From assembly GCF_022846255.1 (NCBI RefSeq), contig NZ_AP025682.1: DNA of 64,000 bases; one strand, written 5' to 3'. Below the pieces are notes generated by a model. The model did not search any database and had not been told where the DNA came from. It worked only from the letters and a program-made list of their open reading frames with translations. A program made the translations under genes and the position numbers. Below are positions 38,321 through 43,316 of the stretch, one piece after another (positions within the stretch are counted from its first letter, which is position 1; every line of letters starts with the position of its first letter). Origin of the DNA: Escherichia coli (GTDB lineage Bacteria > Pseudomonadota > Gammaproteobacteria > Enterobacterales > Enterobacteriaceae).

Positions 38321-40582
38321 TCATCCCCGACGCAAATTCTGCGCCGCCTGCACCATGTTCGCCAGTGCCGCGCGGGTTTCTGGCCAGCCGCGCGTTTTCA
38401 GGCCACAGTCCGGGTTGACCCACAGACGCTCTGCCGGAATGCGTTTTGCCGCTTTCTTCAGCAAGGCTTCAATCCATTCCACGCTCGGTACGTTTGGCGA
38501 GTGAATGTCATAGACGCCAGGACCGATTTCATTTGGATAATCAAACTCTTCAAACGACTCCAGCAACTCCATGTCGGAACGCGAGGTTTCGATGGTGATG
38601 ACGTCTGCGTCCAGCGCCGCAATCGAATCCATGATGTCGTTGAACTCGCAGTAACACATGTGAGTGTGGATTTGTGTGTCATCTTTCGCCACGGCGGCGT
38701 TGATACGGAAAGCCTCCACGCCCCACTGGAGATAGGCATCCCAGTCGCTGCGACGCAGTGGTAAACCTTCGCGCAATGCCGGTTCGTCAATCTGAATGAT
38801 GCCAATTCCAGCGGCTTCCAGGTCCGCCACTTCATCACGCAGCGCCAGCGCAATTTGTTTGGCGATGGTTTCACGGCTGACATCTTCACGCGGGAACGAC
38901 CAGCAGAGAATAGTCACCGGGCCGGTCAACATCCCTTTCACCGGTTTATCAGTCAGGGATTGCGCATATTTTGCCCACTCCACGGTAATCGGTGCCGGGC
39001 GGCTAACGTCACCAATAACAATCGGTGGCTTCACGCAGCGGGAACCGTAGCTCTGTACCCAACCGTTTTGCGTAAAGACAAAGCCATCCAGATGCTCGCC
39101 AAAGTATTCCACCATGTCATTACGCTCGGCCTCGCCATGTACCAGCACATCCAGTCCCAAACGTTCCTGCTCAACAATGGCCTGCTTGATATGTTCCGCA
39201 ATGCCCGTGCGGTAGTTATTGGCGTCGAGATTACCCTTTTTGAAATCCAGACGCAGGGTACGAATCTCCGTGGTTTGCGGGAAGGAACCAATCGTGGTGG
39301 TCGGCCACGCGGGCAGTTTAAAACGCGCACGCTGGGCTTCAGCACGCACTTCATAGACATTCGCACGCTGACTGTCCTGAGCGGTGATCGCCGCCAGACG
39401 CTTTTCTACTGCCGGATTATGTACACGAGTAGAGTGACGACGCGCCTGAATCGGAGCGCTCCACTCTGCCAGAGCTGCCGTATCACCACTGTTCAGCGTA
39501 TCGCGCAGCAATGCCAGTTCATGACATTTTTGCAGGGCGAAGGCAAACCAGCTTTTCACTTCTGCATCAAGACGCGTTTCCACGCTCAGGTCGATGGGGC
39601 TGTGCAGCAACGAGCAGGAAGATGCCACCCACAAATCGCGTTTGCCGACAATGTCCTTAATTTGCGCATATTTCTCGGTAAGATCGGCGCGCCAGACGTT
39701 ACGACCATTGATAAGACCCGCAGACAGCAGCCAGTCAGAAGGCAGACGCTTGTGCAGTTCAGCAACGTCATCTTTACCATGTACGAGATCGACATGCAGA
39801 CCCTGAACAGGCAGCGCAGTAATCGTGTCGAGGTTTGGCGTTACGCCTTCAAAATAGGTAGTCAGCAGCAGTTTCACCTGCCCCTGCAGAGCATCGTAAG
39901 CGGGTTTGTACGCATCCAGCCACGCCTGCGGCAGTTCCAGAACCAGCGCGGGTTCATCAATCTGTACCCACTCGATGCCGCGTTTTGCCAGTTCTGCCAG
40001 CACTTGCTGATAAACCGGCAGAATGTCGTTCAGCAGGCTCAGGCGATCAAACTGTTCACCTTTCACTTTACCCAGCCACAGGTAGGTAACCGGCCCCAGC
40101 AGCACAGGTTTCACCTTGTGGCCCAGCGCCAGCGCCTCGTCCACTTCCTCCAGCAGCTGCGTCCAGGTCAGTTTGAACTGTTGGCCTTTAACGAACTCCG
40201 GCACCATGTAGTGATAGTTGGTGTTAAACCATTTGGTCATTTCCGCTGCCGCCGCAGGTTCGCCAGTCGGTGCACGTCCACGACCAATACGGAACAGGGT
40301 GTCGATATCTACCGAACCATCTTTGTTCTGGTGACGCGCCGGAACGTTACCCAGCAGCAGGCTGGTGGTCAGGACATGATCGTACCAGGCAAAATCACCC
40401 ACCGGCAGCAGGTCGATACCTGCTTGCTTTTGTTGATCCCAGTGACGAGCACGCAGTTCACGCCCTACCGCCAGCAGTTCTTCACGCGTGGAGTTCCCCG
40501 CCCAATAACTCTCTTGCGCTTTTTTCAGCTCGCGACGCAGGCCAACGCGAGGGAAACCGAGGGTGTGATTAAGAATTGTCAT
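38321..40582 (-). CDS. metE: cobalamin-independent methionine synthase
   Basis: 753-aa [32 protein letters not shown]... Confidence 0.96.
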
Positions 40583-40687
40583 TATATGCCCCTTATGGAA
40601 TTTTTAGTATTTAGCCGTCCAGATGTTTACACATCCATAATTGGCGGTTACTGTATATTCCTCAAGCGCAAATTATTCATGCCGAAG

Positions 40688-40700
40688 TGAAGGACTTTCA
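40688..40700. promoter_or_regulatory. MetR-consensus-like palindrome TGAAGGACTTTCA (TGAA-N5-TTCA) at the metR start
   Basis: Seen in sequence within the metE-metR divergent region; real operator positions not verified. Confidence 0.4.
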
Positions 40701-41653
40701 TGATCGAAGTAAAACACCTGAAAACGCTACAAGCGTTGCGGAACTGCGGCTCACTCGCAGCCGCTGCGGCGACGTTGCATCAAACGCAATCCGCCCTGTC
40801 TCACCAGTTTAGCGATCTGGAACAACGCCTTGGCTTCCGGCTATTTGTGCGTAAGAGCCAGCCGCTACGCTTTACACCGCAGGGAGAAATCCTGTTGCAA
40901 CTGGCAAACCAGGTACTGCCGCAAATTAGCCAGGCACTGCAAGCCTGCAATGAACCGCAGCAGACGCGTCTGCGCATTGCCATAGAGTGCCATAGCTGTA
41001 TTCAGTGGCTGACGCCCGCATTAGAAAGTTTCCATAAGAACTGGCCGCAGGTGGAGATGGATTTTAAATCGGGCGTAACGTTTGATCCGCAGCCTGCGTT
41101 GCAACAGGGCGAGCTGGATCTGGTGATGACGTCCGATATTCTGCCGCGCAGTGGCCTGCATTATTCGCCGATGTTCGACTATGAAGTGCGTCTGGTGTTA
41201 GCACCTGACCATCCACTGGCGGCAAAAACGCGTATTACACCGGAAGATCTCGCCAGCGAAACGCTGTTGATTTATCCGGTGCAGCGTAGCCGACTGGATG
41301 TCTGGAGGCATTTTCTTCAGCCAGCAGGCGTCAGCCCGTCACTGAAAAGCGTCGATAACACCTTATTGTTGATTCAGATGGTTGCCGCACGGATGGGTAT
41401 TGCCGCACTACCGCATTGGGTGGTGGAGAGTTTTGAACGCCAGGGTCTGGTGGTCACCAAAACCCTGGGCGAAGGCTTGTGGAGCCGACTGTACGCCGCC
41501 GTGCGCGATGGCGAGCAGCGTCAGCCGATTACAGAAGCGTTTATTCGTTCAGCGCGCAATCACGCCTGCGATCATCTGCCGTTTGTGAAGAGCGCGGAGC
41601 GACCCACTTACGATGCACCCACAGTGAGGCCAGGATCACCAGCGCGCCTGTAA
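40700..41653 (+). CDS. metR: LysR-family regulator MetR
   Basis: 317-aa [44 protein letters not shown]... Confidence 0.95.
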
Positions 41654-42440
41654 TAAACGTTGGCCAGTGCGGCTGTTGGTGCCAGATAGCCAGGTTTACC
41701 AGCAGCCCTGCCGGAACGTGCATATTATTCATAATGCCCAGCGTTCCGGCGTCCACCTGCGTCGCGCCGTAGTTCCACATAAAGTAGCCAATCCCGGAAG
41801 CCACCACGCCAAGAAACACCAGAATGCCCCATTGCAACGTGGTTTGCGGCATTTTCTGCGCATTTCCCAGCAAGAACCATGCAATCACTGCCACCAGGAA
41901 CGCGCCAAGATAGAACCACGCAAAGGCGTTATGCTGCGGCATCGGGCGAGTTTCCATCAGACGTTTGTAACCCACCATGCCGATGGCAAAAGTGATATTG
42001 GAGAGTTGCACCAGCAATAAGCCAGTCCAGAAATGGTCGGTGACCTGATCATAGCGAATAATCCCGGCACCAATCACCGCCAACAAGGCGCTAAAAGCAT
42101 AGCCCCAGCGCAGACGGCGCTTACTCATGATGTCATAAATCAGCGTGATGTAGAGCGGCGTCAGTACGGTGAACAGCAACAGTTCGGAGACCGTCAGGTA
42201 GAGATAGGCGCGGAAACTCAGCATATACATCACACCGAGCTGCATCGCGCCCACCAGCATACACAGGCCAACCGTTTTCAGGCTATTGCCACGGGTGCGC
42301 AGAAACGGCAGAAAAACGAGTGCCGCCAGACCAACGCGCACCAGCACCGCAAAATAGCTATCGACGTGCCCCGCAAGGTACTCGCCATAAAAGCTAAAGG
42401 AGAAGGCCCACAGAATCGTGGTGATGATAAGTAGCGCCAC
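41541..42440 (-). CDS. yigM: DMT-family inner membrane transporter YigM (biotin transporter BioP)
   Basis: ORF track gives 324 aa from an upstream ATG; 299-aa product assumed from an internal GTG ([17 protein letters not shown]). Start uncertain. Confidence 0.8.
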
Positions 42441-42515
42441 AATGGAAAACTCTTTGATTAACGAGTATCCATTGTAGCGAAGTATCAGGTTGACAACTGA
42501 CCAAATAAAGAACAA

Positions 42516-43316
42516 TTACGATAAATAGAGCTTACGCAGATAATGCGGCACTGCGTCTTCGGCGTTAGTACCAATCACTTCCAGCTCTGGATGCAGATCT
42601 TTCAGCCGTTGATGCGCGCTGCCCATAATGCAGCCTTTCCCCGCCATCGACAGCATTTCGGCATCGTTCATTCCATCGCCAAAGGCAATACAATCTTGCA
42701 GGCTGTAGCCCAGTTTCTTCGCCACCGCTTCCAGCGCATGGCCTTTTGAAACGCCGCCCGCCATCACTTCCAGGCAGGTTAAGGTAGAGAAACTGACATT
42801 GACGCGATCTCCCCAGCGAGCGTTAATCGCCTGCTCCAGTGGCAGAAGTTTTTCATGGGAATCGCAGGTGAAGAACACTTTGCTGACGCCTTCCGGCTCC
42901 AGCAATCCCGGCTCATACAGCGCATATTTGAACACCGCTTCTTTAAAAAAGCGCATCTCTTCCGGGCGATGGCGATTCATAAACCATTCGTCGTCGCGAT
43001 AAACGTTAGTAATGATGTCCGGATTGTCGTTGACTACGCCAAACAGGTCACTGGCAATGTCGCGATCCAGGTTATGAGCAAAAATCAGGTTGCCATCGAG
43101 GTCGTGAACGCGCGCGCCATTGGAGGTAATCATGTAAGACTTAATCTCCAGATTATCGCGAATTTGCCCCACATCAACGTGGTGACGACCGGTCGCAAAC
43201 ACAAAGTTGATGCCGCGCGCGGTGAGCAGCTTCAGAGTTTCTTTGGCGTAAGGGGATAACGTATGGTCGGGAGAAAGTAACGTGCCATCTAAATCAGACG
43301 CAACAACCTGGTACAT
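42516..43316 (-). CDS. yigL: HAD-family sugar/pyridoxal phosphate phosphatase YigL
   Basis: 266-aa product from MYQVVASDLDGTLL (HAD motif I); ORF track starts 42 codons upstream. Confidence 0.9.
   Translation of the reverse strand: MYQVVASDLDGTLLSPDHTLSPYAKETLKLLTARGINFVFATGRHHVDVGQIRDNLEIKSYMITSNGARVHDLDGNLIFAHNLDRDIASDLFGVVNDNPDIITNVYRDDEWFMNRHRPEEMRFFKEAVFKYALYEPGLLEPEGVSKVFFTCDSHEKLLPLEQAINARWGDRVNVSFSTLTCLEVMAGGVSKGHALEAVAKKLGYSLQDCIAFGDGMNDAEMLSMAGKGCIMGSAHQRLKDLHPELEVIGTNAEDAVPHYLRKLYLS

Follow-up and report, generated by a model that had tools for sequence, protein, structure and literature searches.

The genes metR and bioP (yigM) of Escherichia coli converge and share their last 113 nt of coding sequence, and this overlap is genuine and ancient, more than a chance coincidence of open reading frames. 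Purifying selection acts in both reading frames and is partitioned between them, one part of the shared sequence being held by MetR, the rest by BioP, and a short stretch at the boundary by both. Each stop codon is read from conserved codons of the partner. We consider it likely that the overlap is a frozen by-product of tight convergent packing and not a dedicated regulatory device. The window analyzed here is a stretch of 64,000 nt (RefSeq assembly GCF_022846255.1, contig NZ_AP025682.1), and positions are numbered along it unless K-12 coordinates are named.

The metR-bioP locus

The gene order in the window is metE, metR, bioP, yigL, and pldB, with metR on the plus strand and the others on the minus strand. 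The features of the overlap are as follows.

38321-40582, minus strand: metE
40700-41653, plus strand: metR coding sequence, LysR-type regulator, 317 amino acids, ATG start (open reading frame list and annotation)
41541-42440, minus strand: bioP (yigM) coding sequence, EamA/DMT-family biotin transporter, 299 amino acids, GTG start
41541-41653, both strands: dual-coding overlap of 113 nt, MetR residues 281 to 317 and BioP residues 263 to 299
41651-41653, plus strand: metR stop codon TAA, read from the sequence
41541-41543, minus strand: bioP stop codon TAA (TTA on the plus strand), read from the sequence

The sequence-only reading had placed the end of metR at 41653 and that of yigM at 41541, with a tail-to-tail overlap of 113 nt, and both the open reading frames and the sequence bear this out. 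The stop positions also match the K-12 annotation. In MG1655 RefSeq, bioP (4011076 to 4011975, plus strand) and metR (4011863 to 4012816, minus strand) overlap by the same 113 nt. The PGAP annotation of the two genes in the nearest E. coli genome is the same as in the window, and the locus was found in 5425 of 5426 complete E. coli genomes. Few of these genomes have a best match that covers less than 80% of the query. One is strain Z135-6 (NZ_CP159632.1, H12), where the best match covers 45% of the query in two joined pieces and the features are labelled "hypothetical protein" and "LysR family transcriptional regulator" and not metR, an indication that its metR carries an insertion or has been rearranged.

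Both partners are genuine genes. MetR matches the Pfam domains HTH_1 (residues 5 to 63) and LysR_substrate (residues 86 to 288), with PDB entry 5fo5, the E. coli MetR DNA-binding domain, as a structure match, and BioP matches EamA. Biotin transport by BioP has been assigned experimentally (PMC5120140 and PMC4049904). The two frames are arranged such that first codon positions face each other, metR second positions face bioP third positions, and metR third positions face bioP second positions. The metR frame ends in a tandem in-frame TAA TAA (41651-41656), the second TAA lying inside the BioP Phe262 and Ile263 codons. The open reading frame list gives the minus-strand frame as 41541 to 42515, whereas bioP is annotated from the GTG at 42440. 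Upstream of this GTG the frame stays open to a TTG at 42515 (minus strand), for 324 amino acids with 25 extra residues; the TTG adjoins the yigL stop at 42516, and the 25-residue extension lies outside the K-12 and PGAP annotations. A frame of 611 amino acids with a TTG start (38855-40690, plus strand) runs antisense over nearly all of metE and is a mechanical antiparallel open reading frame without coding evidence.

Conservation and age of the overlap

We compared one genome per species and considered the best 80 loci, all of them from Enterobacteriaceae and with MetR identity of at least 89%. metR is followed by a convergent bioP in all of these 80 loci, and in 77 of the 80 the two stops keep their positions and the overlap measures exactly 113 nt. 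The metR-bioP block of 1741 nt aligns without gaps at 77 to 100% identity among the 77 loci that span it entirely. Because the overlap has exactly the same length and the same stops in 77 of the best 80 loci, without a single indel, it cannot be put down to chance coincidence of open reading frames. There are three exceptions. MetR has 312 amino acids in the first (L025), and the overlap is 98 nt. In the second (L036), a BioP Val replaces Thr/Ile, which turns the metR TAA into CAA and extends MetR to 318 amino acids. A premature bioP stop in the third (L062) leaves BioP with 284 amino acids and an overlap of 68 nt.

The arrangement extends beyond Enterobacteriaceae. Proteus mirabilis (Morganellaceae) has metE, metR (317 amino acids), and bioP (290 amino acids), with an overlap of 86 nt, and in another relative (L083) the overlap is 98 nt and MetR has 312 amino acids. 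Our first search for BioP homologues gave only relatives of at least 82% identity, and the more distant context comes from a representative search and from contigs. None of the BioP homologues of 51% identity or less (L084 to L090; 282 to 296 amino acids) adjoins metR. No adjacent but non-overlapping metR-bioP pair was present in the loci reached, a set without known members of Yersiniaceae, Erwiniaceae, or similar families. Persistence across at least two families of Enterobacterales is explained equally well by a selected regulatory coupling and by lock-in through double coding constraint.

Two observations concern the sequence records themselves. In L083 (556-1455, a Logan assembly), about 40 internal residues of the BioP homologue fail to align and resemble a translation of E. 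coli bioP in another frame (compare the open reading frame at 41725-41919, minus strand, in the window). This points to two mutually compensating frameshifts or to a misassembly, and either would explain the low identity of 57%. Furthermore, the records of P. mirabilis (NZ_OL790811.1, L091; 4.08 Mb), Aeromonas caviae (NZ_AP026896.1, L092; 4.94 Mb), and Neisseria gonorrhoeae (NZ_CP119142.1, L093; 2.17 Mb), which served here as outgroups, are chromosomes filed as plasmids in PLSDB, a labelling error.

Partitioned selection inside the overlap

Nucleotide diversity (pi) was calculated by codon position across 77 species, and the statistics given below ignore phylogenetic non-independence. Outside the overlap, pi at codon positions 1, 2, and 3 is 0.074, 0.029, and 0.366 in metR and 0.122, 0.051, and 0.410 in bioP. 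Inside the overlap, it is 0.066 where the two first positions coincide, 0.184 at metR second (bioP third) positions, and 0.172 at metR third (bioP second) positions. Viewed codon by codon, the variable position switches sharply at 41605/41606, and the overlap falls into the following parts.

41541-41605, both strands: MetR-dominated half, MetR F281 to P302 conserved and BioP tail 285 to 299 variable
41606-41653, both strands: BioP-dominated half, last BioP transmembrane helix conserved and MetR tail T303 to L317 drifting
41589-41605, both strands: doubly constrained core, MetR S298 to P302 and BioP V280 to S284

In the MetR-dominated half, variable sites number 6 of 21, 4 of 22, and 17 of 22 at metR positions 1, 2, and 3, and variation is nearly confined to metR third (bioP second) positions. 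The pattern is reversed in the BioP-dominated half (5 of 16, 14 of 16, and 4 of 16; Fisher P = 3.6e-4), where nearly all of the variation is at bioP third (metR second) positions. The stretch of about 17 nt that belongs to both conserved cores is nearly invariant at all three codon positions. At the protein level, mean conservation is 0.98 for MetR 281 to 302 and 0.66 for MetR 303 to 317, while it is 0.89 for BioP 259 to 284 and 0.79 for BioP 285 to 299.

Synonymous positions tell how much each tail is constrained. Diversity at the bioP third positions that face the MetR tail does not differ from that of bioP third positions elsewhere (pi of 0.393 versus 0.410; P = 0.37), and the MetR tail is thus without detectable constraint. 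The metR third positions that face the BioP tail are mildly less diverse (pi of 0.266 versus 0.366; P = 0.02), and those that face BioP 280 to 284 strongly so (pi of 0.080). Purifying selection in both frames, the match with K-12, and the conservation of the stop positions across Enterobacteriaceae agree with the assumption in the sequence-only reading that both stops are real, and they appear to be so, to the extent that annotation and comparison allow a judgment.

The C termini of MetR and BioP

The structure of the Neisseria meningitidis MetR regulatory domain (PDB 4ab5) can be aligned only up to E. coli residue 296. The full-length MetR of N. gonorrhoeae stops where the E. coli protein has residue 302, that of A. 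caviae near residue 291, and bioP is not downstream of metR in either species. In the AlphaFold2 (AF2) model of E. coli MetR, which is of moderate quality (mean pLDDT of 76, from a shallow alignment of 27 sequences), the last helix spans residues 276 to 292, a strand follows at residues 296 to 298, and pLDDT is below 50 at residues 301 to 317. The MetR tail from residue 303 to residue 317 is therefore predicted to be disordered, and its sequence is unrelated between Escherichia and Proteus. The same model has a second segment with pLDDT below 50, residues 193 to 218 (about 41276 to 41353 in the window), within the effector-binding domain; this probably reflects the shallow alignment and not real disorder.

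The BioP tail is different. The EamA domain ends at residue 275 (Pfam), and in the AF2 model (mean pLDDT of 94.7) the last helix starts at residue 259, with pLDDT declining from about 95 to about 78 after residue 280. The tail is modelled as a helical continuation at this lower value and is not predicted to be disordered. The terminal Glu299 is invariant, and the end motif ALSE/ALNE is conserved. Outgroup BioP homologues have tails of 5 to 22 amino acids with unrelated sequences. There are also natural BioP variants that end at residues 284 to 285, right after the conserved WVAP(R/H)S, in clusters of 42 and 66 sequences; these short variants (P0075 and P0077) come from Salmonella serovar Gaminara and from a gut Enterobacteriaceae species. 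Because it is not predicted to be disordered and shows mild constraint, the BioP tail is best described as loosely constrained and not as neutral.

Origin of the overlap

The length of the overlap is tied to where the two stops are embedded. The metR TAA is complementary to the end of the BioP Ile263 codon and the base that opens Thr264, within the last membrane helix, and the bioP TAA is complementary to parts of the invariant MetR Phe281-Ile282 codons, two residues shared by at least 90% of the 27 aligned MetR sequences, outgroups included. Since the stops are built from conserved codons of the partner and any indel shifts the frame of both genes, the length is locked at 113 nt. The computed density of stops in the antisense phase is about 0.03 to 0.04 per codon, and run-ons of about 15 codons therefore need no special explanation.

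The reading that we prefer is that of a by-product of convergent packing. The functional core of MetR would end at about residue 302 (41605) and the conserved core of BioP at about residue 284 (41589), and each frame would run about 15 codons past its own core, through the core of the partner, to the first stop encountered. Where the cytoplasmic tail of BioP is only loosely constrained, the sequence would be set by the last helix and strand of MetR, and where the MetR tail is presumably disordered and effectively neutral, by the last transmembrane helix of BioP. Reciprocal embedding of the stops, together with the double frameshift that an indel would cause, would then freeze the overlap at 113 nt in the whole family. 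Transcription would end in a factor-dependent way, by Rho on the bioP-sense strand, as no intrinsic terminator fits the region. From this we infer that the tails are probably dispensable and that the overlap as such would have no regulatory function. Two results speak against a pure by-product. The lower synonymous diversity opposite BioP 285 to 299 and the invariant Glu299 indicate that this tail is not wholly free, and AF2 models it as a helix with pLDDT of about 78.

Transcription across the junction

Each stop lies inside the partner gene, within its last 37 codons, and as a result the two mRNAs are complementary over at least 113 nt. The earlier statement that each transcript must run through the 3' coding region of its partner follows directly from this, and the antisense interference for which it saw scope would be a possible consequence. 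Overlap of transcript 3' ends is the rule, being found in 276 of 370 convergent operons of E. coli with a mean of 286 nt (PMC4161252), and head-on collision of RNA polymerases is a reported route of termination at convergent pairs. Some expression of the two genes may be lost to the antisense overlap.

A consensus scan and folding of both strands gave no intrinsic or bidirectional terminator near 41541-41653. The only match of the scan lies within metR, at 41254 (plus strand), and the total number of matches is lower than expected from shuffled sequence. A bidirectional intrinsic terminator at the junction was rejected, as the scan was negative and the folded stems are GC rich without U-tracts. 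The elements that can be placed near the two ends are the following.

41812, minus strand (bioP sense): peak of a published Rho-termination region, mapped to the window from K-12 position 4011704 (plus strand)
41485-41528, minus strand: candidate stem-loop without U-tract, 13 nt past the bioP stop, from folding
41671-41707, plus strand: candidate stem without U-tract, 18 nt past the metR stop, from folding

Adams et al. (2021) give a Rho score of 5.07 (P = 1.3e-12) at K-12 position 4011704 on the plus strand (PMC7815308, Supplementary file 2), a position that is coarse since the score uses 800-nt windows. Reads upstream and downstream number 98 and 21 without the Rho inhibitor bicyclomycin (BCM) and 300 and 326 with it (PMC7815308). 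Supplementary file 2 has one entry for the locus, in the bioP sense, and none for the metR-sense strand. Termination on the bioP-sense strand is thus factor dependent, by Rho in the published data.

Both candidate stems look conserved when viewed on their own. By strand-specific G-U tolerance, the stem at 41485-41528 is 96.7% paired on its sense strand versus 82.1%, and the stem at 41671-41707 is 96.3% paired versus 85.3%; the covariation score was reached in 0 of 500 shuffles. Set against 313 background helices from the same alignment, the first stem ranks about 22nd of the 311 with enough variant cells and the second falls outside the top 25. We had considered conserved 3' stem-loops as the key element of the junction and demoted them, as about 20 background helices are equally or better conserved. 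The stem at 41485-41528 might possibly serve as a hairpin that protects the bioP 3' end, and, like the stem at 41671-41707, it is a weak candidate.

Complementary 3' ends could make expression of metR and bioP mutually exclusive, by interference or by RNase III, and in this way couple methionine synthesis to biotin uptake. Biotin synthesis consumes S-adenosylmethionine (SAM), a conceivable metabolic link. Using ExcludonFinder, a study in NAR (2025) lists bioP-metR among 165 core convergent excludons of MG1655, those found in at least 50% of 58 RNA-seq samples (PMC12288877), but such a listing is automatic for any expressed pair with overlapping coding regions. No intrinsic terminator insulates the two genes, and colliding RNA polymerases reportedly bring about termination at convergent pairs; however, the transcripts of 75% of convergent operons overlap in any case, and Rho limits bioP-sense read-through into metR, which favors insulation over use. 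The arrangement has been kept from Escherichia to Proteus, but double coding constraint fully explains this conservation. The coupling would also run in a direction without obvious physiological sense, and neither a regulatory role nor reciprocal expression of bioP and metR is demonstrated in the literature searched. metR, yigM, and bioP are absent from the supplementary tables consulted for a p19 dsRNA-capture study, which may be incomplete and in which their expression was possibly low, and the supplementary tables of a SMRT-Cappable-seq study have no entry for metR-bioP. We therefore consider a functional excludon of this kind unlikely. A hard-wired version would have metR transcription, which goes up on MetJ/SAM derepression, throttle bioP by collision or RNase III and vice versa, such that methionine and SAM are linked to biotin uptake, with the stems positioning the collisions or protecting the 3' ends; we find this version quite unlikely.

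Selected tails and misannotation as alternatives

The by-product reading treats the tails as run-ons. They could instead have been selected, if MetR 303 to 317, BioP 285 to 299, or both carried a localization, degradation, or interaction signal and both extensions were needed. The fixation of both stops in 77 of the best 80 loci would fit such a requirement, but the conserved codons of the partner account for the stop positions. MetR is 317 amino acids long in Escherichia and Proteus alike, yet its tail is unrelated in sequence between the two, is shorter in L025 and L083 (both 312 amino acids), is lacking in Neisseria and Aeromonas, is predicted to be disordered, and evolves at its second positions at the synonymous rate (0.393 versus 0.410). 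For BioP, the conserved ALSE/ALNE end and Glu299, the reduced synonymous diversity opposite the tail (0.266 versus 0.366; P = 0.02), and the helix modelled by AF2 speak in favor of selection. Against this, BioP has 290 amino acids in Proteus, and the variants of 284 to 285 amino acids form clusters of 42 and 66 sequences. Taken together, it is very doubtful that either or both tails were kept for a function of their own.

That one product ends earlier or is read in another frame, such that there would be no true coding overlap, is highly improbable and was rejected: errors account for most annotated overlaps of more than 60 bp and for 124 of the 178 convergent ones (Pallejà et al. 2008, PMC2478687), but convergence is the only orientation with true overlaps of this length (PMC2478687), neither the metR nor the bioP frame has an earlier in-frame stop, the conserved cores (MetR to residue 302 and BioP to residue 284) already overlap by 17 nt, the stops are kept in 77 of the best 80 species loci, and deletion of metR phenocopies the loss of yigM (PMC5120140).

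Earlier reports and practical consequences

The overlap of metR and bioP has been annotated and reported before. Côté et al. (2016) commented on it (PMC5120140) and found that a metR deletion is synthetic lethal with bioA and sensitive to a BioA inhibitor, like a yigM deletion, which they ascribed to disruption of yigM. As a metR deletion phenocopies yigM loss, the part of bioP that lies inside metR must be needed. As far as our searches show, the way in which constraint is divided and each stop is embedded in the partner adds new descriptive detail but not a new kind of thing, and no description of a clean division of constraint into two parts with embedded stops was found in the literature searched. 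A ΔbioH ΔyigM::Km strain has been described as growing on mineral-salts medium with biotin (PMC4049904). We set this growth aside as evidence on MetR 288 to 317, since the text consulted gives neither the composition of the medium nor the deletion end-points.

The significance of the overlap is mainly practical and didactic. The Keio metR deletion phenocopies loss of the biotin transporter (PMC5120140), and by the geometry of the locus a standard bioP deletion would remove the last 30 or so codons of metR, so the phenotypes of either knockout need care. The locus is also a worked example, valid for a whole family, of how constraint is yielded where the partner has its folded core and of how conserved codons of one gene supply the stop of the other. 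A real antisense coupling would tie biotin uptake to methionine regulation, but nothing yet indicates one.

Comparison with known systems

The closest parallel is the class of long conserved convergent overlaps described by Rogozin et al. (2002), as cited in PMC2478687. According to that citation, these are, like metR-bioP, tail-to-tail overlaps of more than 60 bp between well-characterized genes, conserved in relatives, which arise by 3'-end extension of a frame and in which purifying selection is visible. Pallejà et al. (2008) retained 54 candidate real convergent overlaps of more than 60 bp, most of them conserved only in very close species (PMC2478687). In contrast to the overlaps cited from Rogozin et al., metR-bioP is conserved beyond very close species, with a length fixed throughout the family and with a counterpart in Morganellaceae. 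The pair holD-rimI (Pallejà et al. 2008) is likewise a real coding overlap across Enterobacteria with genus-specific variation in length, but it is co-directional and covers 32 to 56 bp, whereas metR-bioP is convergent and covers 86 to 116 nt.

Convergent excludons (PMC12288877; the concept is reviewed in PMC7154746) resemble metR-bioP in being neighbors on opposite strands with overlapping transcripts. Classical excludons, however, overlap in untranslated regions and show reciprocal expression, whereas the metR-bioP overlap is coding and thus unavoidable. Transcripts that end in a Rho-dependent manner and carry protective 3' stem-loops (Dar and Sorek 2018, PMC6061677) share with metR-bioP the lack of a U-tract terminator, the BCM-sensitive read-through, seen here in the bioP sense, and GC-rich stems, here 13 to 18 nt past the stops. 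They differ from metR-bioP in that its candidate stems are unexceptional when compared with background helices.
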